64,000 nucleotides of DNA from an uncultured virus (IMG/VR IMGVR_UViG_3300035136_000035) (lineage: Duplodnaviria > Heunggongvirae > Uroviricota > Caudoviricetes), in the IMG/VR virus record IMGVR_UViG_3300035136_000035, one strand, 5' to 3'. Positions within the stretch are counted from its first letter, which is position 1, and every line of letters begins with the position of its first letter. The notes below the pieces were generated by a model that was not told the origin of the DNA, did no database searches, and was given only the letters and a program-made list of their open reading frames with translations. Of this stretch, positions 1-58,419 are shown piece by piece. A program made the position numbers and the translations under genes.

Positions 1-115
1 CAATTAAATCATAAGGTTTATAAAATTTATAAAGCATTTTTCCTTGATAAATATTCCTCTCGATAGAAACTATCACGAGAACAAGTAACATGCAAATTAT
101 AATATTTTTTTTCAT
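1..115 (-). CDS. partial second copy of the 1000..1308 membrane-anchored hypothetical protein (runs off the window edge)
   Basis: Positions 1-122 are identical to 1194-1315; ATG at 115-113 reads MKKNIIICMLL. Confidence 0.8.
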   Translation of the reverse strand, partial: MKKNIIICMLLVLVIVSIERNIYQGKMLYKFYKPYDLI

Positions 116-122
116 AGTGAAA
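1..122. repeat. direct repeat, copy of 1194-1315
   Basis: Base-by-base identity over 122 bp; it may extend beyond the window. Confidence 0.95.
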
Positions 123-154
123 TATTTTTCATTGTTTATATAAACAAGTTTAGA
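116..154 (+). mobile_element. attI-like terminal half-site of cassette array 1
   Basis: AGTGAAATATTTTTCATTGTTTATATAAACAA-GTT; 116-150 is the exact reverse complement of 58385-58419. Confidence 0.7.
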
Positions 155-161
155 AAATATA

Positions 162-440
162 CTAGTCTTCATCCCAATAATAAACATGGTCAATTTCTCC
201 AGCCTTGTACTTTTCAAGTAACTCTATACCCTTTTTTAATTTTTTAATAGAGTTATCAATGAAAGTGTCTAATTCTTCTTTTGGTACTGTTTCATTATCT
301 TCTTGCGAGTTCCAACATCGTTCTTTTCTTGGCTGGTAAATTACATAACTTGTCTCTCCGGTATCTTCATCTCTCCATAGTTGTACAGGGTAATTATAGC
401 TCCAAAATAGTTTGTCAAAATTTTCTGTTTCTTGTATCAT
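162..440 (-). CDS. hypothetical protein (cassette gene)
   Basis: 92-aa ORF between GT(T)TAGAAAATATAC at 148 and GTACGTTTTCTAAC ending 485. Confidence 0.75.
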   Translation of the reverse strand: MIQETENFDKLFWSYNYPVQLWRDEDTGETSYVIYQPRKERCWNSQEDNETVPKEELDTFIDNSIKKLKKGIELLEKYKAGEIDHVYYWDED

Positions 441-478
441 ATCATTAAGTTTTAAAAAATTAAAAAAATCCGTACGTT

Positions 479-531
479 TTCTAACACTAAATAAACCACA
501 TTAAAACGATGGTTTATTATTTACGTTAGGC
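479..531 (+). mobile_element. attC-like recombination hairpin
   Basis: TTCTAAC...GTTAGGC enclosing imperfect inverted repeat TAAATAAACCA/TGGTTTATTATTTA. Confidence 0.8.
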
Positions 532-555
532 ACAATAAAAATTTATGCCAACGCA

Positions 556-891
556 CTATTTGAGAAACGTTCGATTATATTTTATACTTTGTTTGTTTAG
601 TTTTTCGGCTTGCATCTGCATAAGTTGGCTAATGTTAAACCCATTATCTATAGCCAACCGCACCAAGTAAAATAATGCATCACCAAGTTCATCACCCATT
701 GCATTTTTTAAGTCTGGTATTGAACATATTCCATCTCCAACCCACTCAGGTTTTATTTTTTCAAACTGCATTTTTTTAGCGATATTAGCAGCCTCCCCAA
801 CCTCCCCACAAAGAGCATTACTATTGTACAATTCATTACCTGGTTGTAAGCTATGTTGCCTTACTAAGTTTTCAAAGTTCATTGTTTCCAT
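556..891 (-). CDS. MazG-like nucleotide pyrophosphohydrolase (cassette gene)
   Basis: ALCGEVGEAANIAKK and DELGDALFYL motifs; cassette ends GTTAGGCA (525) and TGCCTAAC (913-920) are perfect complements. Confidence 0.85.
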   Translation of the reverse strand: METMNFENLVRQHSLQPGNELYNSNALCGEVGEAANIAKKMQFEKIKPEWVGDGICSIPDLKNAMGDELGDALFYLVRLAIDNGFNISQLMQMQAEKLNKQSIKYNRTFLK

Positions 892-913
892 CCCAATATA
901 AATTTTAAAAGAT

Positions 914-1005
914 GCCTAACATGCGGTAAAAGTAAGCCGCAGAAAGGCTTGTGAATAATTTGAGTAGTCTACAAAGCGGCCTACTCTTACCGCTGTCCGT
1001 TATTC
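914..1005 (+). mobile_element. attC-like recombination hairpin
   Basis: GCCTAAC-atGCGGTAAAAGTAAGCCGC...GCGGCCTACTCTTACCGC-tgtcc-GTTA; a copy with identical arms lies inverted at 57462-57543. Confidence 0.85.
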
Positions 1006-1308
1006 ATCACCCCCTAAACTTTCGTTAAGTGAATCAAATTTATATGCAAATGTTAAGGAATCCAATTTCATTTGTCGAATTTCGAGTAATACATGAAACG
1101 AATCAAATTGAAATTTGGATTGTTCTATTTCATTAGAATTAATTATTCTTAACATTTCCTTATAAAGACTATCTGAAGCTTTGTTTATATCAACAATTAA
1201 ATCATAAGGTTTATAAAATTTATAAAGCATTTTTCCTTGATAAATATTCCTCTCGATAGAAACTATCACGAGAACAAGTAACATGCAAATTATAATATTT
1301 TTTTTCAT
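1000..1308 (-). CDS. hypothetical protein with N-terminal hydrophobic anchor
   Basis: 102-aa ORF; its stop codon is the TAA of the attC core. Confidence 0.75.
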   Translation of the reverse strand: MKKNIIICMLLVLVIVSIERNIYQGKMLYKFYKPYDLIVDINKASDSLYKEMLRIINSNEIEQSKFQFDSFHVLLEIRQMKLDSLTFAYKFDSLNESLGGDE

Positions 1309-1347
1309 AGTGAAAAATTTTTAATTGGTTATATATACACGTTAGTG
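1309..1347 (+). mobile_element. attI-like terminal half-site of cassette array 2
   Basis: AGTGAAAAATTTTTAATTGGTTATATATACAC-GTTAGTG; near-identical to 2249-2286. Confidence 0.7.
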
Positions 1348-1357
1348 GCAATACAAG

Positions 1358-1618
1358 TTACCACATTACTTTAACTGTTCTAAATGAATCTTGTAACATT
1401 TTATTACTTATGTACGAGTGTATTTTAGATTGTATTCTATCCACTTCGGCTTTGTTTTTAAATCTATCAAGTATTACTGTTATTGATTGGATACTGTCGT
1501 CAAAATACACATCAGAATCCTTCGGGCATAATGCTCTGATATTATCATAAAAATTATTACTGCCACTAACACTATGTAAAGTGCATGGCTGTTCTGTTTT
1601 TAAATCTTTTGTACTCAT
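1358..1618 (-). CDS. hypothetical cassette protein with N-terminus encoded inside the attC loop
   Basis: ORF crosses the core at 1564-1570 (TLHSVSGS); cassette ends GTTAGTGGCA and TGCCACTAAC are complementary. Confidence 0.75.
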   Translation of the reverse strand: MSTKDLKTEQPCTLHSVSGSNNFYDNIRALCPKDSDVYFDDSIQSITVILDRFKNKAEVDRIQSKIHSYISNKMLQDSFRTVKVMW

Positions 1619-1694
1619 ATCTAAAGTTATTTAAGTTTTGAAACTATGTAGCTTTGCTCAAGGCAGCCACGACACCTTACATTCACCGTTATGC
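1564..1694 (+). mobile_element. attC-like recombination hairpin (long loop)
   Basis: CACTAAC-actATGTAAAGTGCATGGCTG...CAGCCACGACACCTTACAT-tcacc-GTTATGC. Confidence 0.8.
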
Positions 1695-2123
1695 CCCATT
1701 GCTATATAAGTTATATAAGGCAATAACAGTTTCATATCCGGGGCTTTTAATCTTTCCAGTTTCTAATTGACTTAGGTAAGCATTTGAAATGCCCGTCTGT
1801 TTTTCAACTTCTCGGAGTGTAAGTCCCTTATCTTTTCTCATTTTTTTGAAATCTAATTCACGCAACGATGGCATAATAATATGTATAGGTAATTCTGCAT
1901 TATTTTTTACTACTTCCTGCGCATATTCTTCCATTGCTGCCAGAACATTTTCTTCTAATTTAAATTCTTTACAAAGATTTGCAATTGTTTCCCAAAAAAT
2001 AGTATGATATTTAGTATATTCTGGAATATCGCAATTTAAAGGCATTTTTTTTATTAATTTAAAAGCATTTTCCCTCACATAACACATTGGAAAATGACTG
2101 CAATTAAAACATGTTCTTTCCAT
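1689..2123 (-). CDS. XRE-family HTH protein; cassette-borne HTH fused to an upstream Cys-rich N-terminus
   Basis: KKMRKDKGLTLREVEKQTGISNAYLSQLETGKIKSP is a classical XRE HTH; HTH part bounded by GTTATGCC (1688) and GGCATAAT (1870-1877). Confidence 0.85.
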   Translation of the reverse strand: MERTCFNCSHFPMCYVRENAFKLIKKMPLNCDIPEYTKYHTIFWETIANLCKEFKLEENVLAAMEEYAQEVVKNNAELPIHIIMPSLRELDFKKMRKDKGLTLREVEKQTGISNAYLSQLETGKIKSPGYETVIALYNLYSNGA

Positions 2124-2125
2124 AA

Positions 2126-2248
2126 TTAATTCTTTAAAGTTTCACAATAAAATTCAAATTCACGTGGTATTTTACCAGTTTTAATAATAAAATCCTTCTG
2201 TCTCCTAGATAATATCTTTTGTCCTTCTTGTAATAACTTTTGTTTCAT
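2126..2248 (-). CDS. small hypothetical protein (40 aa, not in ORF track)
   Basis: MKQKLLQEGQKILSRRQKDF...; ATG directly abuts the attI-like half-site. Confidence 0.55.
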   Translation of the reverse strand: MKQKLLQEGQKILSRRQKDFIIKTGKIPREFEFYCETLKN

Positions 2249-2286
2249 AGTAAATATTTTTAATTGGTTATATATACACGTTAGCA
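2249..2286 (+). mobile_element. attI-like terminal half-site of cassette locus 3
   Basis: AGTAAATATTTTTAATTGGTTATATATACAC-GTTAGCA. Confidence 0.7.
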
Positions 2287-2292
2287 AACATG

Positions 2293-2562
2293 TTAAAGAT
2301 ACCCGATATCTTTTACAGTTGCAAAAAACATATCAGTAGGATTGTATTTATAATACAGCTCTACCACTTCAAATCTCATTATTTTCCCAGACTCCATTTT
2401 ATCACGAAATTCGTCGCCAATTTTAACCTTTGGATTTTTAATGAATCCATATAAACTTAGATTGTCATAATCTCTCCATTGGATTGAATTTCCCCATCCA
2501 TTGTGTTCCCAAATATTAAAAACACGTTTGTTAACATCAGGTACATTAATATCTATTTTCAT
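2293..2562 (-). CDS. hypothetical cassette protein
   Basis: Ends GTTAGCAAACATG (2280) and CACGTTTGTTAAC (2523-2535) are 11/13 complementary; ORF reads through the core (VPDVNKR). Confidence 0.75.
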   Translation of the reverse strand: MKIDINVPDVNKRVFNIWEHNGWGNSIQWRDYDNLSLYGFIKNPKVKIGDEFRDKMESGKIMRFEVVELYYKYNPTDMFFATVKDIGYL

Positions 2563-2574
2563 TATACAGTTATT

Positions 2575-2784
2575 TTATTGTTCAAATTCTTTTTGGATGA
2601 ATAAATCAATAGCTTCTTCACTTGCATATCCTCTGAATTCATCCATTAAATAATTATAATATTTATTAAGTAATATTTTTGAATTTTCTTTTAATAAATC
2701 ACTTAATAAATTAATAATATCATTTTTTGTGTAAATATTCTGACATAACCTATCAGCATATTCTTTTATTAAATCTTTCATCAT
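2575..2784 (-). CDS. hypothetical protein
   Basis: Closely packed ORF in the leftward operon. Confidence 0.65.
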   Translation of the reverse strand: MMKDLIKEYADRLCQNIYTKNDIINLLSDLLKENSKILLNKYYNYLMDEFRGYASEEAIDLFIQKEFEQ

Positions 2785-3053
2785 GCAATAATTTTATGGT
2801 TAAACTTATCTTTAAGAGATTCAACCTTACGATTGAATTTTTTAATATTATCAGATATAGTTTTAAGTCTATTTAAAGGCCGTACAAAGAAGTAATTTAT
2901 TTTATCTGATATTATTTCACATTGCCAGGTTTCTCCTGCACAGCAAAGAAAATCGCCTACTACAAGGCATAATTTACCTTCATGTCTTGCGATAGGTTTT
3001 TGATTAGGTATGTTACTTTCTGTAAATGTTAATTCAATTATTTGTGTATTCAT
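2781..3053 (-). CDS. hypothetical protein
   Basis: ORF with ATGA overlap to the next gene. Confidence 0.65.
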   Translation of the reverse strand: MNTQIIELTFTESNIPNQKPIARHEGKLCLVVGDFLCCAGETWQCEIISDKINYFFVRPLNRLKTISDNIKKFNRKVESLKDKFNHKIIA

Positions 3054-3064
3054 AATTTTAAAGT

Positions 3065-3256
3065 TTATTTAATTTTTATCCAACTTCTTGCTTCTGTGTC
3101 CCAATCGTATTCGTCTCTTATATCTCCATTTCCATAAAAATCTAAAGCTCTTATAGCTCCTTGACTATATCCAGCTAAAGTTATTGCTTCTGCTGGTGTT
3201 TTTCCTTTTACAATTTCCTTTTCACCTGTAAGCCAAAATAATGTGTATGTGTTCAT
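3065..3256 (-). CDS. hypothetical phage protein
   Basis: Packed ORF, ATGA overlap. Confidence 0.65.
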   Translation of the reverse strand: MNTYTLFWLTGEKEIVKGKTPAEAITLAGYSQGAIRALDFYGNGDIRDEYDWDTEARSWIKIK

Positions 3257-3435
3257 TGTTTTTTAATTTTTTTATTAGTTACATTACACCATCCGTGTAT
3301 AGTTATATTTTCAAGTGTTTTTAATTCATTAAGGACTATGTTTTGAATATCTTTATAGGTAATATCATCAAATTTTTTATTTATTGAAACTCCTACAATA
3401 TTTTTTTCATTTGTTCCTATATTTATTGTTGTCAT
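3253..3435 (-). CDS. hypothetical protein
   Basis: Packed ORF with AT-rich leader. Confidence 0.6.
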   Translation of the reverse strand: MTTINIGTNEKNIVGVSINKKFDDITYKDIQNIVLNELKTLENITIHGWCNVTNKKIKKQ

Positions 3436-3460
3436 AATTTAAGTCTTTTAAGTTCTTCTC

Positions 3461-3664
3461 TTACTTCTTTTCATCTGAATATTCATAAGAATAATATTCA
3501 TTAAAACTTTCATATTTCCCTTCTAATACTTCTGATTCATAAATATGAACAGGAGATTCACCAATATCTTGTCTGTCATAATCTAACAATATTATTTCCA
3601 TTGGTTCTTCTGTTATAGCTCGTTGAAAAGCTCCGTTTTTAATTTCAATTAGTATTTTTTTCAT
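3461..3664 (-). CDS. hypothetical protein
   Basis: Packed ORF. Confidence 0.6.
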   Translation of the reverse strand: MKKILIEIKNGAFQRAITEEPMEIILLDYDRQDIGESPVHIYESEVLEGKYESFNEYYSYEYSDEKK

Positions 3665-3676
3665 GGTTAAATGTTT

Positions 3677-3883
3677 TTAATAAGTTAAACTAAGTTGTTT
3701 TCCTTTACTGAATTTTTCTACAATAATGCCTGTTGTGGTACATACATCAGAAATAATAACACCAGGTAATTTTGATAGTTCTCTAGCTCTTATACAAGCT
3801 AAAGGTAAATTAGAAACTAATGGATTTTTAACATGTTCCATATAAGAACCATCTTTTAATTGTGCTTCTATTATATATGTCAT
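3677..3883 (-). CDS. hypothetical protein
   Basis: Packed ORF. Confidence 0.6.
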   Translation of the reverse strand: MTYIIEAQLKDGSYMEHVKNPLVSNLPLACIRARELSKLPGVIISDVCTTTGIIVEKFSKGKQLSLTY

Positions 3884-3894
3884 AGTTTTAATAT

Positions 3895-4107
3895 TTAATG
3901 TTCAACAACTACAATCTGCATGAAATTACGGTCTAATAATTCAACCGTCCAAAAGCACCCTTTTACCCTATAGTGAATAGGTAAGCGTAGATCATCCCTG
4001 GAAGATATTCCAGAGGAAGTAATAAAATGCCTTAAGCATTCACTAGCGGAAATGTCTAAAATTATTTTTTCCATTTTAGTATGATTTAGATTGATTATAT
4101 CTATCAC
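3895..4107 (-). CDS. hypothetical protein (start probably internal MEKII)
   Basis: ORF track; operon context. Confidence 0.5.
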   Translation of the reverse strand: MIDIINLNHTKMEKIILDISASECLRHFITSSGISSRDDLRLPIHYRVKGCFWTVELLDRNFMQIVVVEH

Positions 4108-4176
4108 GTATAAGTGCTATAATAGAAAACACTATAAATAACCCTATTAAAAATAATGTGTCCATAATTATATGTT

Positions 4177-4509
4177 TTAAATTAAAAGGTTAGCTGTTTC
4201 AGGGAATAAATCATAGCCTTTATTAAGGTTGAATCTTGTTTTTTTACGGTTTTTAACGAGTTGAATGAAGTATTTCCCGTAATCCGATAAAATATAAGTG
4301 TACCAACCATATGATTCTGTAAAATCATATTCATAATCAAAATTTAAAATACAATATTGATATTCACTTAATAAATTTATATCAATTACAGATTCAGGAT
4401 CATCCTTCCATACATTATACAGCACAGATAAATATAATACTGACTTATCTATATGTAAAAATTTCTTAATCTCTTTTATACAAGTTAAATCTGAATAAGA
4501 TGTTTTCAT
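4177..4509 (-). CDS. hypothetical protein
   Basis: 110-aa ORF. Confidence 0.6.
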   Translation of the reverse strand: MKTSYSDLTCIKEIKKFLHIDKSVLYLSVLYNVWKDDPESVIDINLLSEYQYCILNFDYEYDFTESYGWYTYILSDYGKYFIQLVKNRKKTRFNLNKGYDLFPETANLLI

Positions 4510-5189
4510 AATAGTGTATTTTAAATGATTAATTAATAATAGCTTTACATTTTGTTTGTGTTATTGAACAATTTTCATTCCACACACATTGATAAAGACA
4601 AATTTGATTATCTAATAATTTTTTTTCTACAAGATCACATTTTGAATAATCGTATTTTCTGATTTTTGTTCTCATACTTTATATTTTAAGTTAATATTTC
4701 AATCTAATACATAGTAACTTTTTTGGGTAATATTCTTACTACACCATTTAACCAAATTACATTATTTATAATATATATACTATATACTAAGTATATTAAT
4801 ATATATAAGAATAAATAAAGTATTAATGATTACAGAGGTCAATTTCGCCCACTTGGGTAATGGATTTAATGTTTGAATTAATGAATTTAAAATATTACCC
4901 CCAGGTTCAGAAGTTTCACCGAGAGCCTGAATTTCATTCAAACATAAATAAAACATATCCTCATTAGTCTCCTTTTTTGTTTCAACCTCGATATAATCAG
5001 GTAGCGCAGTATAGGAAGAAAGAACTGCTATGTTAGGGCTAAACATTCCTACAAATGAATAAAGGAAGGTACTAACATAAGCAGTCCTTTTAAAATTAAA
5101 TATGTATTTTGAAATCATTTGTATAATGTTTAGCTGATTCAAAAGTACATATTATTTTTTAATTTCAAACAAAATACAATATTAAATTT

Positions 5190-5260
5190 TAATTGGCTTC
5201 ATTAAACAGCCTAATAAAAGGCTGTCTACTCTGAATTTTCAGGCTTGTAACTGTCAATTA
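5190..5260 (-). ncRNA. twister self-cleaving ribozyme, type P3 permutation
   Basis: Minus strand: TAATTG-A-CAG TTACAAGC CTG-AAAA-TTCA-GAGTAG-ACAGCCT tttatt AGGCTGT-TTAA-TGAA-GC-CAATTA, matching P3/P4/P2/P1 with the UUAC/GUA and GC/GC pseudoknots. Confidence 0.85.
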
Positions 5261-5532
5261 AGATTTGTTAAAATATATTCTCCAGATTGAATTTTACTTT
5301 CAGTTTCTTTTTTAGTTTCACACAAAAACTGGTTTCTATATTTACCAGTTGTTCTTGAATAATCCCAGTAAGTTTTATCTAATTGTACTTTACCCTTGTT
5401 AGGTTTGAATGCAATTACTGACTTATAGGACTGAAAATATGCACCTTCATTTGTAATAATAATAAACTGATTTTTTACTGCTTCGCCAGTTTTATCACTG
5501 ATCATTTGTGTTACTTTTACATTTGTTTTCAT
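5254..5532 (-). CDS. small early-region phage protein
   Basis: 92-aa ORF with FQSYKSVIA and WDYSRTTGKYRNQFL motifs typical of early phage proteins. Confidence 0.75.
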   Translation of the reverse strand: MKTNVKVTQMISDKTGEAVKNQFIIITNEGAYFQSYKSVIAFKPNKGKVQLDKTYWDYSRTTGKYRNQFLCETKKETESKIQSGEYILTNLN

Positions 5533-10143: not shown

Positions 10144-10373
10144 AACTAAAATACGAAACAGTTCATTTCAAGAAAATCAAAAAAAGGAATATTCATGATC
10201 AATATAATGTATTTGAAAATACATTTAATATTCAAATTGGTTTAATAATTTGGAGTGATTATTCTAAAAAATATGGTTATTTATCAGTAATGAATAATTG
10301 GCATTGCAATGAATTACCAGAGATTATTGAATTTTTAAAACAATTGAATAATGAAAATACTAATACTGGTTAA
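10140..10373 (+). CDS. hypothetical protein
   Basis: Packed ORF. Confidence 0.55.
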   Translation: MKLKYETVHFKKIKKRNIHDQYNVFENTFNIQIGLIIWSDYSKKYGYLSVMNNWHCNELPEIIEFLKQLNNENTNTG

Positions 10374-10381: not shown

Positions 10382-10765
10382 GTGATGGAAAAAGAGACGA
10401 AGCCACAAAAAAGCACTGATACCCAAATGGGTTATGATACGGTGTTAGCCACAGTTTTTAGGGGTGGCAATGCTGGAATAGAATTTGATTACAAATGGTT
10501 TTTCAGATATTTAGATTATTTGCGAATTGGGTCGAAAAAATTACTGACAAAACTAAGGCTTAGAGATAAACAAAGTTGTAAATATTGTGGACGAGACCAG
10601 CATGTAGTGTGGAGTTGTAAAAATGAAGATTGGTTGAAACTACCAGAGCGGTGGCACAATACTGCTTTATGTTTGGAATGTTTTATTGCACTATATCCTG
10701 ATAATATGAACAAAGCTGATATAAAAATACTTGGTTACGATTGTGGGATGGCAAATTGTGGTTAA
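10382..10765 (+). CDS. Cys-rich (CxxC) hypothetical cassette protein
   Basis: CKYC...CLEC; cassette ends GTTAGCCACAGTTT (10444) and AAATTGTGGTTAAC (to 10766); stop codon lies in the core. Confidence 0.75.
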   Translation: MMEKETKPQKSTDTQMGYDTVLATVFRGGNAGIEFDYKWFFRYLDYLRIGSKKLLTKLRLRDKQSCKYCGRDQHVVWSCKNEDWLKLPERWHNTALCLECFIALYPDNMNKADIKILGYDCGMANCG

Positions 10766-10798
10766 CAATATGTATAACCAATTAAAATTTTTTCATTA
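10760..10798 (-). mobile_element. attI-like terminal half-site of cassette locus 4
   Basis: TAAC-AATATGTATAACCAATTAAAATTTTTTCATTA then ATG; same family as 1309 and 2249. Confidence 0.65.
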
Positions 10799-10827
10799 AT
10801 GAAAATACTAATACCGATTGAAATAAA

Positions 10828-11298
10828 ATGAATCTTGAACAAGAAATAATAAATTATATTCCTGAATTAAATAAATATTCAAAGTATCTCACTTCGTATT
10901 ATCCAAATGATTTGGTCCAAGATACTCTTGAAAAAGCATTAAGAAAAAAAAATGAATATAATGATCAGGGAAAATTGATAAAATGGCTTATTGTTATTAT
11001 GAAAAACACTCTTATTGATAGAGAAAAGTACAAAAAAGAATTTTATCCAATATTTGACTATTTTGATGAATTTGAAAATATCAAATCTTTGAAAATAGAT
11101 AGAAGAAAATTACGAAATGTGATATTTAATAGTAAAAGAAAGATTGTTGAATCTATTTATTTAAAATCATTTTTTGAACTTGAATACAAAGAAATATCAG
11201 TATTTCTTGACAAAAATATAGGTAAAGTACGACGTAACGTACATGAATTTAGAACATATATGAATAAAAACTTTAAAATGGAGGATTTTATATTATGA
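10828..11298 (+). CDS. ECF-type sigma-70 factor
   Basis: Region 2 DLVQDTLEKALR...LIKWLIVIMKNTLID; region 4 LEYKEISVFLDKNIGKVRRNVH. Confidence 0.8.
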   Translation: MNLEQEIINYIPELNKYSKYLTSYYPNDLVQDTLEKALRKKNEYNDQGKLIKWLIVIMKNTLIDREKYKKEFYPIFDYFDEFENIKSLKIDRRKLRNVIFNSKRKIVESIYLKSFFELEYKEISVFLDKNIGKVRRNVHEFRTYMNKNFKMEDFIL

Positions 11299-13176: not shown

Positions 13177-13186
13177 TTTTTATTGT

Positions 13187-13391
13187 GCCTAACGGCTGGC
13201 GGTATGCGGTCGTTATTTTTTACGGATTTGAAACACTTAATAAAATATAAAGATGAAAGACATTGAAAATTGGCTAAAAAACAGATACAGCGAACAATTG
13301 GTACACGCTAATAGTGCGTTTATTAGTAGCATTATATATGATTACTGCACGGAAGTATTAAAAAATAATGCCGTATTACCGCTTGTTAGCA
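13187..13391 (-). mobile_element. attC-like hairpin with protein-coding loop
   Basis: GCCTAAC-ggctgGCGGTATGCGGTCGTTATTTTTTA...TAAAAAATAATGCCGTATTACCGC-tt-GTTAGCA (as read on +). Confidence 0.8.
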
Positions 13392-13546
13392 AACGTTTTG
13401 AAATAGAGTTTAAATACGTTGACAGAACGGATGCTACATTACATAAAGATATTGTTGAAGCAGAAGATAGCGGACAAGCCATAAGTAAATTGTTTCAAAA
13501 ATACGGTTATAATATTGAGTGGTGGACAGTTAAAAATGTTTACTAA
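13253..13546 (+). CDS. hypothetical cassette protein with attC-encoded N-terminus
   Basis: Crosses the core at KNNAVLPLVSKR; ends GTTAGCAAACGTTTT and AAAATGTTTACTAAC; stop codon lies in the core. Confidence 0.75.
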   Translation: MKDIENWLKNRYSEQLVHANSAFISSIIYDYCTEVLKNNAVLPLVSKRFEIEFKYVDRTDATLHKDIVEAEDSGQAISKLFQKYGYNIEWWTVKNVY

Positions 13547-13588
13547 CATACATATAACGAAAATTTACAAACGCAAACAATATCCAAT

Positions 13589-15742: not shown

Positions 15743-15815
15743 TGCGAGATAGAACAGTGAGTAGTTCGCTAGTTTCATACGCTAGAGGTCGAGGGTGCAA
15801 ATCCCTCTCTCGCTA
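15743..15815 (+). tRNA. tRNA-Met(CAT), initiator-like, atypical
   Basis: Acceptor GCGAGA/TCTCGC with 1:72 mismatch; D stem GAAC/GTTC; anticodon arm CTAGT-TTCATAC-GCTAG; T arm GAGGG-TGCAAAT-CCCTC; no encoded CCA. Confidence 0.85.
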
Positions 15816-15865
15816 CTAAAATAAGAAAGGAGGTAACCATGACGTAAAATCAATAAATAAATGTC

Positions 15866-28822: not shown

Positions 28823-30214
28823 ATGGCTGATCCTACCGCCGTAATAGGCGCATACGCATATCAAATCATGTCCGGTTACGATATATGGAAACCGGATGAA
28901 TATAATGTACTTATGGCTAAGTACAATGATCAAGGAGCTACCTTTCATAATATGATTGGGATGCTTGGATTCTCTAAACCAGTTGCACGTGATATTTATT
29001 ATTGGACAGAAGATGATTGGTTACATGAAAATTTCAGAATTTTAGGCACTGTTGCTGATCAAGGAGCAGGAAATGAACTTGAAGTTACTTTACATGGTGA
29101 TAGTGTTGATTCAAATAATAGGTATTATCCAAGATTATGTGATGAAGTTATAATGCCTAATGAATCTCCTGGATTAATAGTTGATATTGACGTAACTACA
29201 CCAACTGCACCTGTTATTAAAATTGAACCTCTTGATGCAACAGATACTTTAGGTGGTGTTACTGCCGGTGATTATCTTGCAATATGTTCAGATGCTTTTG
29301 CTGAACGTTCTGGACAACCTGATGGAAGGATATCAAATGTTAATAAATATTATAATTATGCACAGATAATTAAAGAAACTATTCAAGCATCAGGTAGTGA
29401 ACTTACTCGTCAGGAATGGATAGATTCTTGGAAGGTTATGCCGAATGATAAAAATCCTAATCGTCCATTTTTGTATCATAAAGGACTTAGTTTTGATCTT
29501 GATTATAGGATAAGTTTAGCACAAGGTGGTGCTTATCTTGTTGGTAAAAAAACAACAAATACTTCTGTTGTAGATCAAACTAGTGGACTTGCAATTAGGA
29601 CAACAGAAGGTTTAATACCTAGTATTAGAGGCAGGGGAAATGTTTATCCTAAAGCAGTAGGTTCATTTGCATTGACAGATTGGAAAGCTATCAATAAAGT
29701 TCTTGATAAGAAATATGTAAGTAATAATGTTCTTATGTTACTTGGAGTTGATAGGCATCACGAACTTGAAGATTTATTAAAAACAGAGATGGCAAATACT
29801 AATATTAACTTTGCTAAACAAGCTAGTAATGCTGCTTTGTTTAATAATAATGATTCTCTTAGTATTGCTATTAACTTTAAATATCTTGTATATGGAGAAA
29901 GGACTTTCCACATGAAAAGATGTCCAGAATTTCATCATCCTAAAGTTCTTGGAACAACAGGATATTCTTATGAAGATATGGGAATCATTCTTCCATTAAA
30001 TAAGAAAAAAGTTAATGGAGAAATGACATCTTATTTTGGTGAAAGATATCGTCAACTTGGAACTTATAACCGTAAATATGAATTATGGGATGTAGGTGGA
30101 GCTGGTGAAGGTCTTAAAGTAACCGATATAGATGAAAGAAATACTTATCTTCGTACTCATTCTGGATTTCATTGTATGTGTCCTGAACAAATGTTACTTA
30201 TTTCCGCTGCCTAA
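28823..30214 (+). CDS. major capsid protein
   Basis: 463 aa; YYWTED, YNYAQIIKET and TTEGLIPSI motifs; follows the scaffold gene and precedes a strong terminator. Confidence 0.8.
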   Translation: MADPTAVIGAYAYQIMSGYDIWKPDEYNVLMAKYNDQGATFHNMIGMLGFSKPVARDIYYWTEDDWLHENFRILGTVADQGAGNELEVTLHGDSVDSNNRYYPRLCDEVIMPNESPGLIVDIDVTTPTAPVIKIEPLDATDTLGGVTAGDYLAICSDAFAERSGQPDGRISNVNKYYNYAQIIKETIQASGSELTRQEWIDSWKVMPNDKNPNRPFLYHKGLSFDLDYRISLAQGGAYLVGKKTTNTSVVDQTSGLAIRTTEGLIPSIRGRGNVYPKAVGSFALTDWKAINKVLDKKYVSNNVLMLLGVDRHHELEDLLKTEMANTNINFAKQASNAALFNNNDSLSIAINFKYLVYGERTFHMKRCPEFHHPKVLGTTGYSYEDMGIILPLNKKKVNGEMTSYFGERYRQLGTYNRKYELWDVGGAGEGLKVTDIDERNTYLRTHSGFHCMCPEQMLLISAA

Positions 30215-31243: not shown

Positions 31244-32239
31244 TTGATAATGACTGTTCATGATTTATTTTTATATAACAATTATCTTGCTAGACGTGAT
31301 CCAATAGGAAATGATATAAAACCAGATCAATTTAATTTAATACTTCCTGTTCTTGCATTTGAATATTTTAAAAAAATAACTGGATTACCTGAAAAATTCA
31401 GAAAAGGAGAAAATGTATTACAATATGGAATAGGCAGAGATCAAGTAATAAATGATAAGACAAGATATTTAATGTCAGAAGATGATCTAACAATTGATGT
31501 CAATGGACAAGATACACTTCCTGCTGATTATTTTTATTATGAATCTATATTACATGAATCATCGGCAGATGTATTTACTCCAGTTACTATATTAAATAAA
31601 CAGAAATTTGATGCTAGGAATTCATCTTCAATAAATATTCCTGATTCTGATAATCCTATATGTACAATAAGAAATGGATTTTTACAATTTTCACCTATTG
31701 ATTTAGGAGATGATGTATCAACTACTTTATATTACATAAAATATCCGACTACGCCATACATGGCTTATGCTATAAATAGCACAACAGCAGAAATAGTATA
31801 TATAGAAAACGGGTCTTATTTTTTTGTAACGGTTGCTGGTTCAGCAAGTGATACAATAGAAGCTGTTGTTGCACCTGGAGATATTTCAATAGGGTCTTAT
31901 ACTGTTCAATCTGGAGATACAATAGATGATGTAATGCAAGGCATAACAGATGATATTAATGAAGATTATTTAACACATGGAATAAAAGCTATATTTGATG
32001 GAGATAAAGTATGGTTAAAAGATACAACAGGGACTTATACAACATTAACTATTAATATCACAGGTAGTGTAGCTGCAACAAAAGTTAATTTTAGTGATTT
32101 ATCAACTCAATTTGATTGGGAAGATGATTATGATGCCATGAATGAAATATCTGAATTATTATTAACAAAAACAGGTATTTCTATACGTGATATTTCATTA
32201 ACACAATGGGCTGAATTACAAAAACAAAATAATGACTAA
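31244..32239 (+). CDS. putative tail ring/adaptor protein
   Basis: LPADYFYY and LYYIKYPTTP motifs; position in the module. Confidence 0.55.
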   Translation: MIMTVHDLFLYNNYLARRDPIGNDIKPDQFNLILPVLAFEYFKKITGLPEKFRKGENVLQYGIGRDQVINDKTRYLMSEDDLTIDVNGQDTLPADYFYYESILHESSADVFTPVTILNKQKFDARNSSSINIPDSDNPICTIRNGFLQFSPIDLGDDVSTTLYYIKYPTTPYMAYAINSTTAEIVYIENGSYFFVTVAGSASDTIEAVVAPGDISIGSYTVQSGDTIDDVMQGITDDINEDYLTHGIKAIFDGDKVWLKDTTGTYTTLTINITGSVAATKVNFSDLSTQFDWEDDYDAMNEISELLLTKTGISIRDISLTQWAELQKQNND

Positions 32240-32855: not shown

Positions 32856-33637
32856 GTACTGATATATTAAAAACAGGATCACGAATATCATTCGATGAAA
32901 TAGCTGCTGAAGCTGAAATCGAATTAGAAGTTGAACCTCAAACATACAGGGAAAAATTTATTCAACTTGCAATGAGATGTTATGCCCATTTAAATATATT
33001 TAATTCAAATCATATAGAAGTAGATTATTTTGAGATGAATTCCACAACTGGTATTGTAGATTTATCTTCCCTTACTGATTTTATTGATTATGTAAAAATA
33101 GGAATGCCTATTAATGGTAAAATATGGATTCTTGATATTAATAATAAAATATTATTACCTAGAGATACTTTAAGTGATGATGCTGCCAGTAAAATATTTA
33201 ATAATAATGATAGTGATGTATTAGTACATTGTGGATATTATTTTTGTGATCATTATTGTAATGGAAATTTTATAAGTGGATTATATGGAGTAGGTGGTGG
33301 ATTTAGCCGTTCATATTGTCGTGTTGATAAAGAAAATATGCAAATACAATTTGATACGTCAGTTCCTAATAATGAAATAGTGCTTGAATATATTTCAACA
33401 GGGATAAAAGCAAGTGGGGCTACATTAGTTCCTGTTGAATGTAAGGAATTATTAGTAGCATGGATAGTATGGAAACATTATACGCCTAAACGAAATATTT
33501 ACCCGGCTGAAAAAAGAGATTATAAACAGGAATATTTAGAAAGAGAAAGAGAATTAAGATCATTTCAAAAGAAATGGACTTTACAAGAATATACTAATGC
33601 TTTATATTCAACATTTAGAGCAACAGCAAAAAGATAA
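32852..33637 (+). CDS. putative tail ring protein
   Basis: Position; DFIDYVKIG and IVLEYISTG motifs. Confidence 0.55.
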   Translation: MSTDILKTGSRISFDEIAAEAEIELEVEPQTYREKFIQLAMRCYAHLNIFNSNHIEVDYFEMNSTTGIVDLSSLTDFIDYVKIGMPINGKIWILDINNKILLPRDTLSDDAASKIFNNNDSDVLVHCGYYFCDHYCNGNFISGLYGVGGGFSRSYCRVDKENMQIQFDTSVPNNEIVLEYISTGIKASGATLVPVECKELLVAWIVWKHYTPKRNIYPAEKRDYKQEYLERERELRSFQKKWTLQEYTNALYSTFRATAKR

Positions 33638-34164
33638 TGCAAGTAATTGATGAAATATTATTTACTCCAAATGGAGGCATGAATAAAGATGTTGATCCAA
33701 GATCAATACCTAAAGGAGATGTTATTGAAGTCTTAAATGGAAGATGGTGTAAAAGTTTTGCAAACAATATTGGGTCATTAGAAAAAATTATAGGAAATAA
33801 ACTTATAAATTTTGTTTTTCCAGAAGGTGATAATACAATAATTAAAACAGTAGAAGATACTAAAAGAAATTATATATATGCTTTATCATATAATGAATAT
33901 GGAAAACATTGTGTTTTAAGAATAAATCCTATTATTGAAGAAATTGATCCGATATTATATGATGAAGATATTCTTAATTTTAATTTGAATTATCCAGTTC
34001 ATTTGGATTTTACAGAAATAGGAGTAGAAGGTATGTTATTTTGGACTGATAAATATAATCCTCCTAGACATTTGGATATTGAAAGATATAGAAAATATAC
34101 AATAGAAAAATATAATGAAGGAATTGGATATTGGATAATTTCTGATGATTTTGTAATTAGTTAA
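33637..34164 (+). CDS. tail stabilisation/nozzle protein, N-terminal part
   Basis: GGMNKDVDPRSIPKG...LFWTDKYNPPRHLDI. Confidence 0.65.
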   Translation: MQVIDEILFTPNGGMNKDVDPRSIPKGDVIEVLNGRWCKSFANNIGSLEKIIGNKLINFVFPEGDNTIIKTVEDTKRNYIYALSYNEYGKHCVLRINPIIEEIDPILYDEDILNFNLNYPVHLDFTEIGVEGMLFWTDKYNPPRHLDIERYRKYTIEKYNEGIGYWIISDDFVIS

Positions 34165-34522: not shown

Positions 34523-37141
34523 ATGAAAAAAATAATATTATTTATAATAATAATGATGATTGGAATAAATATTTATTCTCAAACATCAAAAGCAATTCTT
34601 AAAACATACTTCGAAACTGGAGATAAACCTACACAAGAACAATTTTGGGAATTCATTGATAATAGTTATAATCAAGGGACAGATGGAATACTTGAATATA
34701 CTGGCAATAGCTTAAATATAGATTTTTCTCCATATACAAGTAAATCTGATTCAGGAATATTATATACAGGAACAGATATTCCAACGGATACTACTACATT
34801 TTTAAATTACAATGGAACATTCAGGGCTGCAAAAATAAAAATAGGCAATATAGAGATTGATCCAGAAGGTGTAGGGACTACATATTCATCAGGTAGTGGT
34901 ATATATGTAGATAATGTAAATGATCAAATAGATTGGGTAGGGACATTAGATACTGATGCTGATATTGAAATGTCAACAAATAGGATTTATTTTTATACTC
35001 CATCAGGAGGAAGATTTGAATTTGATGATGATTACATGATATTACAACAACCATCTTCAAAAATAATTACAATAAGTTCATCTGGAGGCAGTTCTATTTA
35101 TGGGGCTACAGGAGTACAAATTTCTGGAACATCAACAGGTGATGTAAATATAAAAACATCAACAAATGCTGCATCTGATATAATAATTACAGATCAAAAA
35201 ACAACAAAAACAGGAATAGTATATGCAGCAGATTATTCATCTGATATAATAAGCAATAATTTATCTTTGATTAATGTTGGAATGACTCTTGATCTTATTA
35301 ATGACACAGCTATTGATGTTAGATCAGATTTATCTGATTCATGTGCTGTTTTAAGATCACTTATTGGAGGAAGTGGAATATGGACTCAATCAGGGAATAA
35401 AATATATCCAATAAGTAGTAATGATAGTTTAGGTATAGGAGGAGTCCCTACTGACAAATTTTATGTTAATGGGAATATAACAGCTTCTAATATAACTCTT
35501 GGAACAAATATGAATGCATATAGATCAATTACTACATTTTGTAATTCTGAATATTTTGGTGTATATGGTAAAATAGATTTTTTTGATAATAATGCTAGTA
35601 TAAGTAATTATTATACTGATTTAAGATTTTATGATGAAAATGCAGGAACTAAAACATTATCTCAATTAGCAAATATAACAACTTCAGCTAGTGGTTTAAC
35701 AACTACTAGTGATGTACATAGATTAGGAGGACCATTAGCTCAAAATACTACTATATCAGGTTCTTATGAAATGAATTTTACAAATAGTACATTTTCAGCT
35801 ACTCCTATTTCATCATTAGAATTAAGTTCAGATGCAAATGTTGTATTGGAATATGGATATGATAGTGTATCTATTGAAAATGGATCAATAGGAAATCATG
35901 GGCCTCATATTACAGATTTAAAAACAGTACCAGAAGGATTAAAATATTTTGAAGAATATGATTTAGCGAGTAATAAATTATCTATTCCTTATGTTGGAAT
36001 GGAATGGGATACTATATTTGTAGGAAATACTAAAATATCAAGAAATAATGCATATCCGGCATATTTGCAATTTTATAATACAACAAATGATAGAGGATTT
36101 TATTGGAATTTAGGTTCTTTTGCTAGTGGACTATTTGATATGAGCATACCTTCTGGATTATTATTCCATGATGATCATACGGCTATTATATATGATAATG
36201 ATTATTTATATTGGGAAGGTTCTAATATTCTAAGAACATCAACTGATACAGCAGCGTGGCTTAGTGATGTAAGATCAATGGCAGGTGGTGGAGATGTCAG
36301 TATTTCAGGAACGCCTGCTGATAATCAAATTGCTGTTTGGACTGATGCGAGTACTATTGAAGGTAATTCTACTTTTACTTTTTCAGAAAATAGTGATACT
36401 TTAATAATTGATAATTTATATAAAATATATAGAAATACAACAAGTGGACATTTAATTTTTGCTTATCAAAATACTCCATATTTTTCAGTGGGAAACGCAA
36501 GTTACTGGGGCTACGTAAATACAAATGGGGCTATGATTGGAAATTTTGCTAGAAGTAATACACTACCATCTTATACGTGGGAAGGAGATAATAATACTGG
36601 AATTGGAAGTCCTTCAGATGATAGATTGTATTTACAAGCTGGAGGAGATAAACTAATTGAAATAGCTATAGATTCAGTAATAGCAAATGATACTATTTAT
36701 TTAGATTATTTAGGAGTAGGATCAGAAGGTGCATGGTTATATTTAACCCCAGATAATGCTATTGATACAGGTACATTAGCAGATGCCGGATTTGGTCTTA
36801 CAATGGATATTCCTGAGACAATGACTGAATTTATGAATGATAATTATAATGATGAATTACCATATTTTTATAAAGATGCTAATGGTGTTATACAAAAAAC
36901 ATATACATTAAAAGGAGGATGGGCTAATCAAGCTTTTCAAAAAATAGGTTCTAGGGTTGAAATAACAATGAGATATGTTCGGGAGCTTGAAAAAAAGAAT
37001 AATGAATTAGAAAGCAGAATTGAACGATTAGAAAAATTATTATTAAATAGTGTGGGGGATCAAGGAATATTGCCTGAAAATATTGATGAAATATTAGAAC
37101 AATCAAAACAAGAGACTGATGAAATACTTAATTTATATTAG
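34523..37141 (+). CDS. tail fibre-like protein
   Basis: LKTYFETGDKPTQEQF N-terminal motif, G/S/T-rich beta repeats, C-terminal coiled coil. Confidence 0.65.
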   Translation: MKKIILFIIIMMIGINIYSQTSKAILKTYFETGDKPTQEQFWEFIDNSYNQGTDGILEYTGNSLNIDFSPYTSKSDSGILYTGTDIPTDTTTFLNYNGTFRAAKIKIGNIEIDPEGVGTTYSSGSGIYVDNVNDQIDWVGTLDTDADIEMSTNRIYFYTPSGGRFEFDDDYMILQQPSSKIITISSSGGSSIYGATGVQISGTSTGDVNIKTSTNAASDIIITDQKTTKTGIVYAADYSSDIISNNLSLINVGMTLDLINDTAIDVRSDLSDSCAVLRSLIGGSGIWTQSGNKIYPISSNDSLGIGGVPTDKFYVNGNITASNITLGTNMNAYRSITTFCNSEYFGVYGKIDFFDNNASISNYYTDLRFYDENAGTKTLSQLANITTSASGLTTTSDVHRLGGPLAQNTTISGSYEMNFTNSTFSATPISSLELSSDANVVLEYGYDSVSIENGSIGNHGPHITDLKTVPEGLKYFEEYDLASNKLSIPYVGMEWDTIFVGNTKISRNNAYPAYLQFYNTTNDRGFYWNLGSFASGLFDMSIPSGLLFHDDHTAIIYDNDYLYWEGSNILRTSTDTAAWLSDVRSMAGGGDVSISGTPADNQIAVWTDASTIEGNSTFTFSENSDTLIIDNLYKIYRNTTSGHLIFAYQNTPYFSVGNASYWGYVNTNGAMIGNFARSNTLPSYTWEGDNNTGIGSPSDDRLYLQAGGDKLIEIAIDSVIANDTIYLDYLGVGSEGAWLYLTPDNAIDTGTLADAGFGLTMDIPETMTEFMNDNYNDELPYFYKDANGVIQKTYTLKGGWANQAFQKIGSRVEITMRYVRELEKKNNELESRIERLEKLLLNSVGDQGILPENIDEILEQSKQETDEILNLY

Positions 37142-49734: not shown

Positions 49735-49795
49735 TCAATTTTTATCTTAAAATAAAACTTCGTAAACTTGTATATAATTTTAAAAATTAAATATC

Positions 49796-53535: not shown

Positions 53536-54009
53536 ATGAGAAAAATAACTGGCATCGTGATTCATTGTAGTGCTACTTTTGAATGTATAGATATAGATTC
53601 TAATACTATAAGAAGCTGGCATACTACACCTAAAAATATGGGAGGTCGTGGTTGGTCTGATATAGGATATCATTACATTATAAGACTTGATGGGGCAGTT
53701 GAAAGGGGAAGATATGAAGAAAAAATAGGAGCACATGTCAGAGGGCATAATAAAAACACTTTAGGAATATGTTATATAGGTGGATTAGACAATAAAGGAA
53801 AACCTAAAGATACCAGGACAAAAGCGCAAAAACATGCTTTATTAATGCTTATAGAAAGTCTATGTGATAAATATCAAATTAAATCAATAAAAGGTCATAG
53901 GGATTATTCAGAAGATCAGAATAAAGATGGTATTATAGAGAAATGGGAATGGATGAAAAGTTGTCCTTGTTTTGATGTCGAAACAGAATACAAACATTTA
54001 ATAAAATGA
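53536..54009 (+). CDS. endolysin, N-acetylmuramoyl-L-alanine amidase (T7 lysozyme-like)
   Basis: VIHCSAT, GWSDIGYHY, GAHVRGHN, GICYIGG, GHRD and KSCPCF. Confidence 0.93.
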   Translation: MRKITGIVIHCSATFECIDIDSNTIRSWHTTPKNMGGRGWSDIGYHYIIRLDGAVERGRYEEKIGAHVRGHNKNTLGICYIGGLDNKGKPKDTRTKAQKHALLMLIESLCDKYQIKSIKGHRDYSEDQNKDGIIEKWEWMKSCPCFDVETEYKHLIK

Positions 54010-54221
54010 AAATATTAATTCATATATGGAAAATATTAGACGGAAATAAATCAATTATATGTTCGTCAGTACCGACTGTTATATATGGAATGATAAAATT
54101 TGAAATAATACACGAAACTAAATTTTGGTCATTTATAATTTGGATATTTACTACATTATTAGCACCTTCATTATATCACCACATCAAAAAAGGTTATTTA
54201 AAAAAAGATAAAGGAAATTAA
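54006..54221 (+). CDS. small two-TM protein, holin candidate
   Basis: Two hydrophobic segments and a basic tail; overlaps the endolysin stop. Confidence 0.5.
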   Translation: MKILIHIWKILDGNKSIICSSVPTVIYGMIKFEIIHETKFWSFIIWIFTTLLAPSLYHHIKKGYLKKDKGN

Positions 54222-54260
54222 AATATTTTCATGTGAAATATTTTTCATATATTTGCATAG

Positions 54261-54388: not shown

Positions 54389-54403
54389 GCTGCCGATTTT
54401 ATT

Positions 54404-57175: not shown

Positions 57176-57201
57176 CGCATTAATTTTATACATTGTTATA
57201 C
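57123..57201 (-). mobile_element. attC-like hairpin
   Basis: ACATAAC-gtcaaaagATAAA...TTTTATACATT-GTTATAC; same right arm as at 57747-57760. Confidence 0.6.
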
Positions 57202-57450: not shown

Positions 57451-57454
57451 TTGC

Positions 57455-57546
57455 ACACAAAGGACAGCGGTAAGAGTAGGCCGCTTTGTAGACTGCTCAA
57501 ATTTAGTAATAGCTTTCATGCGGCTTACTTTTACCGCATGTTATAA
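57455..57546 (-). mobile_element. attC-like hairpin, sister of 914-1005
   Basis: GGACAGCGGTAAGAGTAGGCCGC...GCGGCTTACTTTTACCGCAT-GTTA; arms identical, loop diverged. Confidence 0.85.
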
Positions 57547-57558
57547 ATTGTAAAAATT

Positions 57559-57714: not shown

Positions 57715-57764
57715 TAACGTTGAGTATAAAATTTCGTTTTAATGAATTTTATACATTGTTACCG
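57712..57764 (-). mobile_element. attC-like hairpin, sister of 479-531
   Basis: TAAC-gttgaG TATAAAATT tcgttttaatg AATTTTATAC att-GTTACCG; loop TCGTTTTAATG shared with 499-509 (minus). Confidence 0.8.
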
Positions 57765-57806
57765 TGTCGTTTTGTGCGGTGGTAGTGTATAGCAAAATAA
57801 ATAAAT

Positions 57807-58010: not shown

Positions 58011-58234
58011 CGGACAGGTATATGAGCCGTGCGGATTAACCCACGGACAATCGAACGAGGTACATAGTAATAATTTTAAAATATTTTTTAGGGATGGAAA
58101 AATCTACAGAAACATTAGTAAAAATGATTGAATTAAATAATTCAATTAATCAGGTTAATAAAGAAAATGAAATGACAAAAAATAACGAAACTCCAGCAAC
58201 CGACAAGGCTATGCAATATGAGTCTGTGTTAGCA
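58005..58234 (-). mobile_element. long, degenerate or hybrid attC-like site with coding loop
   Basis: CGGTAAC-GGACAG... to ...CTGT-GTTAGCA; arms pair only partially. Confidence 0.5.
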
Positions 58235-58380: not shown

Positions 58381-58419
58381 TGCTAACTTGTTTATATAAA
58401 CAATGAAAAATATTTCACT
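58381..58419 (-). mobile_element. attI-like terminal half-site of the four-cassette array
   Basis: 35 bp identical (inverted) to 116-150. Confidence 0.75.

Follow-up and report, generated by a model that had tools for sequence, protein, structure and literature searches.

A short hairpin-less motif at the last junction of integron-type cassette runs in a crAss-like phage

The motif and the cassette runs that it closes

The uncultured virus IMGVR_UViG_3300035136_000035 of IMG/VR (Caudoviricetes) is represented by a stretch of 64,000 nucleotides, referred to below as the window, in which small open reading frames (ORFs) are set apart by imperfect hairpins starting with ...AAC and ending with GTT.... 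Four runs of such cassettes (162-999, 1358-2248, 10385-10765 and 57220-58375) are closed by a short hairpin-less motif, which is the subject of this work. In gene sense each copy consists of a ...TAAC or ...AAAC box, followed by about 32 conserved bases and, 0-1 nt further on, by an ATG. A previous analysis of the letters of the window (the sequence-only reading) had listed five such sites and had regarded them as attI-like landing pads for cassettes, which end most arrays and double as the leader of the next gene.

A degenerate 23-mer core, allowing up to three mismatches, is found at exactly the five sites of that list (Table 1), against 0.38 expected; among 100 shuffled sequences the maximum was 2 and none reached 5. 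The profile was built from the seven full copies, namely the five of the window and two of a further phage, G2, and gives the window copies 30-42 bits, against 7.7 bits for the next best site in the 64 kb. The five sites are thereby confirmed, as are the (T)AAC in front of each window copy and the ATG 0-1 nt behind it. When the two copies of G2 and one of a third phage, G1, are included, the start codon lies 0-4 nt past ...TTTCA in 8 of 8 copies. Two types of motif can be distinguished: type A (copies 1 and 5) contains a perfect 16-bp palindrome, TTGTTTATATAAACAA, whereas type B (copies 2-4) is not palindromic, and copy 3 (2249), with a B-type 5' part and one A-type base near its 3' end, is an A/B chimera. 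The first and last copies, already described as identical although 58 kb apart and inverted, are indeed complementary at 36 of 36 positions (115-150 and 58385-58420), that is, identical in gene sense. Rfam has no match at the motif copies.

The statement that the motif ends most arrays holds for the four runs named above; the single cassette 13253-13546 ends with ...TTTACTAAC and a look-alike (13547-13588) without profile support. This look-alike (3.5 bits) and a second one at 49757-49795 (2.4 bits) lie in the noise of the profile and were not counted.

Table 1. Coordinates of the motif copies, attC-type sites and repeats in the window.
Feature	Position	Strand	Remarks
Motif copy 1, A-type	116..150	-	33.9 bits; AAC, motif, ATG at 115-113 of second 102-aa gene copy
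Motif copy 2, B-type	1309..1343	-	42.2 bits; directly before ATG of 102-aa gene 1000-1308
Motif copy 3, B/A	2249..2282	-	39.5 bits; before 40-aa ORF 2126-2248 and HTH gene 1689-2123
Motif copy 4	10764..10798	+	30.0 bits; then 10-codon mini-ORF 10799-10831
Motif copy 5, A-type	58385..58419	+	38.6 bits; before 17-codon ORF 58421-58474
Start of second 102-aa gene copy	1..115	-	100% identical to 1194-1308; motif in front is of the other type
Distal R'' box of 92-aa cassette	151..156	-	3/6 ungapped, 6/6 with extra A by reading
Full attC-type hairpin, MazG-like gene/92-aa ORF	479..533	-	R'' GCCTAAC, R' GTTAGAA, loop TCGTTTTAATG
Full attC-type hairpin, 102-aa gene/MazG-like gene	913..994	-	87% to 57459-57543
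Degenerate attC-like junction	1619..1688	-	R'' GCATAAC, weak stem
Left copy of 30-nt imperfect direct repeat	10344..10373	+	3' end of upstream gene; score 21.5 vs shuffle maximum 17.5
Right copy of the same 30-nt repeat	10792..10821	+	begins in last motif bases
Short attC-type hairpin before single cassette 13253-13546	13186..13218	+	hairpin folding
Orphan L'-R' half site	57181..57201	+	TAATTTTATACATT GTTATAC; upstream end of run 57220-58375
attC-type hairpin junction	57451..57558	+	homologous to 913-994
attC-type hairpin junction	57715..57806	+	L'-R' arm same as 57181-57201
Junction module, AACGGACAGGTATATGA family	58011..58093	+	conserved up to next ATG

From a structural perspective, the runs were examined by covariation, the six bases after the G of each opening GTT box being compared with the six before the C of the AAC box behind the same ORF. 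Across the cassette the boxes are complementary at 6/6 positions in five of eight cassettes and at 5/6, 4/6 and 3/6 in the remaining three, the last becoming 6/6 (by reading) once a one-base bulge is allowed, while the two boxes of one hairpin match only at 3-4/6. This is the pattern expected of cassettes that circularise through one attC site, and the window carries genuine integron-type cassettes. The distal R' box of hairpin 913-994 is a 6/6 reverse complement of the R'' behind the MazG-like gene, and that of junction 57715-57806 of the next R''; hairpin 479-533 is 79% identical to Cellulophaga phage phi17:1. In an attC site, the R'' box RYYYAAC behind the ORF pairs, within the circle, with the TTRRRY at the opening of the cassette. 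As for the motif, the box in front of copy 1 is the reverse complement, with a 1-nt bulge, of the opening box of the same 92-aa cassette (162-440), and in ORF7 of phage G2 the R'' and the opening box are complementary at 6/6. The boxes that precede copy 1 and the copy at 31517 in G2 are each the R'' of the upstream cassette itself; the other motif-adjacent cassettes have no readable upstream R'. It has already been published that virulent phages, a Polaribacter phage among them, carry clusters of attC sites (PMC9892861). A crude finder of AAC...GTT hairpins proved too noisy and was dropped.

Further observations concern the hairpins themselves. The same 11-nt loop, TCGTTTTAATG, caps hairpins of quite different stems (479-533 and 57715-57806 in the window; contigs L288, L300, L282 and L293), and in four contigs it also occupies the space from an R' box to the following R'' box, where no ORF intervenes; these four contigs contain a conserved 66-nt element whose reading frame changes from one ORF to another. 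The gap 4075-4176 (minus strand), upstream of the tightly packed genes 2293-4074, contains a stretch like the 3' arm of hairpin 479-533, GGTTATTTATAGT GTTTTCT. This stretch is possibly an orphan L'-R' half, with a box that fails to pair with the R'' in front of copy 3.

The 99 ORFs called in the window were compared with Pfam and PHROGs, and include a crAss muzzle domain, a large terminase (phrog_6681), a portal (phrog_6547), an amidase, a DnaB helicase with an intein, a sigma-like protein and a RecE-like exonuclease (62581-63765). The window is a crAss-like phage; its host is probably a member of the Flavobacteriaceae, as judged from the likeness of the terminase to those of Cellulophaga and Flavobacterium podoviruses (about 24% identity) and from a G+C content of about 26%. 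The DnaB-like helicase gene (59369-61831, plus strand) is split by an intein with Hint and LAGLIDADG domains at residues ~223-500. A tRNA-Met (CAT) gene is found at 15743-15816 (plus strand) in a 247-nt gap, adjoined by a hairpin and a TAnnTTTG box, and a twister ribozyme of type P3 (RF03154; 59.2 bits against a gathering score of 39.9) at 5189-5261 (minus strand), in the gap between two small early-region genes and on the gene strand. A blastn comparison of 55300-61900 and 1-4700 with GenBank phages returned only short unrelated pieces. Words of 54000-63900 were listed in eight DNA sequencing runs and in no RNA run, with shares of 71% and 13% of the words in individual runs.

Occurrence in other phages and kinship with attC arms

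Phage G2, a complete 40-kb IMG/VR record with 57 ORFs, contains two full motif copies at 33 bits and has only five proteins in common with the window, including two tail-fibre proteins and a 48-aa protein at 96% identity. One of its motif copies precedes a 94-aa homologue of window ORF 58421-58474, which is likewise preceded by the motif in the window, and the other follows a helix-turn-helix (HTH) gene. The window tail-fibre genes shared with G2 (34523-38909) are 29-38% identical at the protein level. The 48-aa gene (window 4529-4675, minus strand; G2 33577-33723) shows 95% DNA identity, which in two otherwise unrelated phages points to recent exchange. The two phages also share, at 96% identity, a promoter region of 50 nt that contains a TATATTTG box (window 54217-54266, G2 29334-29383), and in both it heads a run of variable small genes that ends at a motif copy. 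Additional viral loci for the 220-aa protein, the 89-aa cassette protein and the 94-aa protein of G2 were looked for and none was found.

G1 (69.7 kb) has no protein in common with the window and carries a 25-nt identical core of the motif, with an ATG 3 nt later, between the 131-aa and 79-aa genes of a replication operon and without AAC box, hairpin or cassette. A further record, G3, agrees with the box and the initial 18 nt of type A and then diverges; a match in G4 (19.7 bits) lies inside an ORF on the opposite strand and was dropped. A viral scan for TAAC-N5-core (120 loci) retrieved only the two G2 copies and a partial copy in L182. None of the matches listed in a metagenome scan with a 19-mer (at least 116 loci) has the family flanks on inspection, the same holds for the seven matches of a 23-mer among prokaryote genomes taken one per species, and a 56-nt query against GenBank phages gave a best E of 0.03, within genes. 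Since these scans of metagenomes, prokaryote genomes and GenBank phages yielded no further members, the motif appears to be uncommon and limited to a small number of phages between which DNA is exchanged.

The origin of the motif was approached by alignment with the arms of attC-type sites. When the B-type copies are aligned as reverse complement with the G2 junction J6, z ranges from 3.1 to 5.9 and 0-1 of 300 shuffles reach the score, whereas forward alignments of the motif with the L'-R' arm remain below z 1, no better than shuffles. The orphan L'-R' arms that align with the motif have the form ...TATACATT GTTAYA, and the A-rich stretch of the motif resembles the complement of the recurrent loop TCGTTTTAATG. 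Because it resembles the reverse complement of L'-R' arms, the motif is best described, at sequence level, as a putative R''-side arm without its partner, that is, half an attC site. The sequence-only reading had taken it for attI-like, and had itself named a truncated attC arm that does not recombine as an outcome that would refute this view; the alignments speak against it in that sense.

Its remark that no partner arm is present is borne out in 6 of the 7 full copies (five in the window and two in G2), where the 150 nt downstream contain no arm complementary to the motif (z -2.1 to 1.8), copy 1309 being borderline (z 2.7, 2/200 shuffles). No significant complementary arm was found within 3 kb upstream of any window copy, and the gaps that bear the motif fold into no hairpin, where an attC site would form one. 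A case of its own is ORF7 of G2 (G2 31330-31503), in which both halves bracket the gene: the partner arm lies 221 nt upstream (z 5.2, 0/200 shuffles), the two ends of the unit folded together reach -14.5 kcal/mol (z -5.9) and the flanking boxes match at 6/6.

This arrangement is what would be left by a cassette circle, or a small element with inverted ends, that was opened at the apex of the hairpin and joined between a stop and a start codon, with the L'-R' arm at its left end and the R''-L'' arm, namely the motif, at its right end. Such an event is in line with the orphan L'-R' halves that open the G2 array and window run 57220-58375 on their upstream side. However, a significant partner arm accompanies only one of the seven copies, the end boxes of the window run do not pair (GTTATAC at 57195 and TGCTAAC at 58381, by reading), the module 1000-1343 starts with the motif and not with an L'-R' half, and no candidate nuclease or transposase was identified, so that opening at the apex is an improbable explanation of the motif.

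Landing pad, operator or leader

The landing-pad hypothesis of the sequence-only reading, according to which insertions leave the downstream start codon intact, can be framed as follows. The motif would be the resident half of a double-stranded attI/attG-like site, to which a host integrase joins circles at the AA/C of R''; with the crossover on the top strand in gene sense, the cassettes would enter in sense, upstream of the resident gene, and leave its start codon intact. The data support this proposal in part: the AAC box is a true cassette R'' in two cases (the 92-aa cassette and G2 ORF7), the conservation starts sharply behind AAC, and an ATG follows. An R''-type box precedes all seven full copies, its distal bases varying with the cassette while the motif side is constant, and the cassettes are of genuine integron type by the box matches given above. 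The reverse strand, on which an attI R box would read GTTRRRY with the crossover at G|TT, reads G|TTAGC, GTTAGT, GTTTAG, GTTAAC or GTTATA in 7 of 7, with TTATATA 5 nt upstream of ...G/TTAGC, an arrangement that the sequence-only reading likened to the L-spacer-R simple site of attI and that may resemble that of attI1; the box is the cassette's own R'', and the crossover would lie there. It has also been reported that IntI1 can use attC sites of virulent phages (PMC9892861) and that double-stranded secondary sites exist (Loot et al., bioRxiv 10.1101/2022.09.11.507474).

Joints that fall right after AAC in related contigs point in the same direction: L282 and L293 have in common a 287-nt unit, 99.3% identical, with AAC at both bounds, and one R'' box is found before four different hairpin cores. 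AAC-bounded units are, however, also expected from homogeneous families of attC repeats or from homologous exchange. Among the high-scoring segment pairs, 11 of 56 right ends fall after AAC, 6 of them inside one module; left ends at AAC are biased by the choice of loci.

Several other findings argue against the hypothesis. An attI site is expected in a promoter-proximal position, at the 5' end of the array, and beside its cognate intI; in 7 of 7 full copies the cassettes are upstream of the motif and oriented towards it, so that it stands at the ORF-distal, 3' end. No match to PF00589 or to any other recombinase was found among the 99 window ORFs (64 kb) or among the 57 of G2, and no integrase in either. 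Among 401 sampled Bacteroidota genomes, IntI exceeded the cut-off in only two, with three loci of 57-66% GC and no match to the motif. The copy in G1 has neither AAC nor adjacent cassettes, the edge of the motif next to the ATG is also a recombination joint, which a landing pad leaves unexplained together with the 30-nt repeat around copy 10764, and no pair of empty and filled sites was found.

A further objection concerns the choice of strand. In three hairpins compared by reading, the gene-strand arm beside AAC is 2-3 nt longer than the other arm, and known attC sites have their extra bases in the AAC arm of the top strand, which does not recombine (PMC5027507). For this strand the same source gives events that are 10^3-10^4-fold rarer, and states of cassettes in the wrong orientation that they 'have never been observed' (PMC5027507). 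Because its AAC arm is longer, the gene strand would be the top strand, and a crossover at R'' would be the rare wrong-orientation reaction. This assignment of polarity is only suggestive, because the asymmetry lies mostly in the spacer beside the R box. Taken with the points above, the landing pad is considered rather unlikely, and slightly more so in the extended form in which lytic Bacteroidota phages possess several dedicated double-stranded capture sites, used by a host integrase through the disfavoured top strand at R''. If true, it would mean that captured genes end up in sense orientation just ahead of a resident phage gene, with which they are co-expressed, and that an integron platform without its own integrase has been multiplied within a virus and is common to unrelated phages.

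In comparison with attI and attG sites as described by Loot et al. (bioRxiv 10.1101/2022.09.11.507474), the motif is similar in that it is double-stranded, forms no hairpin and meets a cassette box at AAC/GTT, with several cassettes stacked beside it. It differs from them in its place at the ORF-distal end of the array, in requiring a top-strand crossover at R'', in the lack of an adjacent intI, in its five copies in one genome, in abutting a start codon and in its kinship with an attC arm.

A regulatory site was also considered, either a promoter that leaves the transcript with a very short leader or none, or an operator bound by an XRE-type repressor. Compatible with this possibility are the constant spacing from the ATG, the AAAAAT that stands 7-9 nt ahead of the start codon, the type-A palindrome TTGTTTATATAAACAA and the HTH_3 genes beside two copies (1689-2123 next to copy 2249; G2 2433-2726 next to G2 copy 2785). 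On the other hand, the -7 box TAnnTTTG of Bacteroidota sigma-A promoters (with TTG ~19-21 nt upstream), which is found 14 times upstream of called ORFs in the window, in front of about 12 genes, and is 3.5-fold enriched in intergenic regions (plus strand), does not occur in or beside any motif copy, and the motif is not a recognisable promoter. The B-type lacks the palindrome, no sigma factor was detected among the 57 ORFs of G2, the two HTH proteins are not detectably related, and an identification as LexA box was rejected, the Bacteroidetes motifs GGA-N5-TCC and CTAA-N5-TTAG (PMC8565304) not fitting the sequence. A regulatory site is therefore regarded as very improbable.

The part of the sequence-only reading in which the motif is the leader of the next gene agrees with the data, an ATG standing behind the motif in 8 of 8 copies. 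TAAAA or TTAAA is found at -22 to -4 before the ATG of 60 of the 99 window ORFs, and the A-rich part of the motif fits this habit; an A at -3, which acts as a positive determinant in Flavobacterium (PMC6847099), is present in 5 of the 8 copies (by reading). In two places a mini-ORF starts at or in the motif and its stop overlaps the next ATG (ATGA): that of copy 4 leads into the sigma-like gene 10828-11298, and a 6-codon one (MKNISL; 113-133, minus strand) into the 102-aa gene copy at 115. These overlaps suggest translational coupling.

Junction modules, shuffling and the meaning of the motif

The motif is part of a wider picture. A 17-mer that opens junction 58011 is present in 27 viral contigs, and the long forms of that junction are conserved from AAC to the next ATG independently of the flanking ORFs, while two short forms (G2 J5 and L307) retain the first 17 nt and the A/T-rich part before the ATG. 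Four of the eight G2 junctions have an R'' box and no hairpin, and the motif is present in one of these four; another hairpin-less G2 junction reads as a deletion form of the long module 58011-58093. Junctions with an R'' box and no hairpin are thus common without the motif (3/8 in G2), and the motif is the shortest, hairpin-less member of a general class of modules that run from the AAC of R'' to the next ATG, and doubling as the leader of the next gene is true of the whole class. A long-form parent of the motif was found neither in an S3-only scan (33 loci) nor in an S1S2-only scan (17 loci). The gene behind one hairpin family (L284, L296 and L304) has, by eye, an N-terminus like that of a C5 DNA methyltransferase (...LSLFDGMSCGQ...), and in two contigs this gene is co-inherited with its upstream hairpin.

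Both edges of the motif behave as joints. The upstream units differ in all motif copies, and window 1-150 repeats 1194-1343 with a gene part that is 100% identical and a motif part that is 79% identical, so that the 102-aa gene, identical over 115 nt, stands behind both an A-type and a B-type copy. Its G2 homologue has an unrelated leader, the homology stopping at the ATG, and the family of ORF 58421 is found behind type A in the window and type B in G2. Upstream unit, motif type and downstream gene are freely combined. Around copy 4 a 30-nt imperfect direct repeat flanks the 126-aa cassette 10385-10765 together with the motif, which fits a Campbell-type or short-homology insertion. As for the machinery, the window phage has the RecE-like exonuclease and G2 a RecT.

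On these grounds the account preferred here, although tentatively, is that the motif is an orphan attC arm retained for two uses, as a translation leader and as a patch of homology through which modules are shuffled. The R''-side arm and the loop-like A-rich stretch of an attC palindrome would have been joined directly to the following start codon, where they could act as an A/U-rich leader of the gene that comes after the cassettes; in two copies this would take place by way of a mini-ORF that overlaps the next ATG. As a patch of 32-45 bp, the motif may be used by the recombination functions of the phages (RecE-like in the window phage, RecT in G2), allowing upstream and downstream parts to be swapped, modules to be duplicated and both to be moved between co-infecting phages. 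The motif would then mark the place where cassette DNA has been fixed to resident genes, without being an integrase target itself. This account is favoured because it brings together the ATG in 8 of 8 copies, the A-richness before it, the likeness to L'-R' arms, the lack of a 3' arm, the hairpin-less junctions without the motif, the modules conserved from AAC to ATG, the cassette-free copy in G1, the free combination of parts, the recombination genes and the lack of a match to tyrosine recombinases among the ORFs of the window and of G2.

Several points weigh against it. The kinship with attC arms is moderate overall (z 3-6), and the A-type copies show a weak likeness to L'-R' arms (z 0.2-2.0). 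The role as an unstructured A/U-rich leader is one that we infer from the sequence. Homologous exchange explains the shuffling of existing copies and not their first arrival before five genes. In all seven full copies the conservation starts sharply, exactly after AAC, and this coincides with the position AA/C at which the integrase cleaves (Loot et al., bioRxiv 10.1101/2022.09.11.507474). Finally, the 36/36 identity of two copies that lie 58 kb apart and an identical 25-nt core in three unrelated phages are more than a leader usually needs.

Among known systems, the attC sites and clusters of attC sites lacking integron-integrases (CALINs) of virulent phages (Qi et al., 2023, PMC9892861) are similar in their runs of cassettes with R''...R' imperfect hairpins, in the absence of an integrase and in residing in a lytic-type Bacteroidota phage; GTTRRRY-like motifs have been described at CALIN boundaries (PMC9892861). 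With respect to the CALINs as portrayed in the parts of that paper considered here, the window motif differs in being a half site without partner, in recurring at the last junction of several runs and in being common to unrelated phages. The promoter early stem-loop (PeSL) cassettes of T4-type phages (Arbiol et al., 2010, PMC2839356) are likewise short conserved intergenic elements beside small accessory genes, subject to modular shuffling; direct PeSL copies could loop out mini-circles, and PeSLs are found in hyperplastic regions (PMC2839356). Repetition and mosaic exchange are also seen at the motif, whereas the sigma70 promoter and terminator stem-loop of PeSLs (PMC2839356) have no recognisable counterpart in it and its origin is of integron type. 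The portions of the literature that were searched held no account of such a terminal motif.

A further comparison is offered by the homogeneous attC repeats of sedentary chromosomal integrons, such as the Vibrio cholerae repeats (VCRs), which lie between variable ORFs and in which the homology between cassettes starts at R''. In contrast to VCRs, the phage junctions are conserved as far as the following start codon, and the 3' half of the repeat is missing from the motif.

Cassette arrays of phages have been known only as scattered attC clusters. The motif marks precisely where cassette DNA meets the resident genes of the phage; it is repeated within a single genome and is found in at least one unrelated phage that has cassettes and tail-fibre genes in common with the first. 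If it is a recombination partner, phages would have capture sites of their own and an unusual choice of strand. If, as preferred here, it is a domesticated half-site, it would show a route from mobile cassettes to stable, translated parts of operons, in which short conserved junctions drive mosaicism. In either case the motif is a short, testable sequence for assays.

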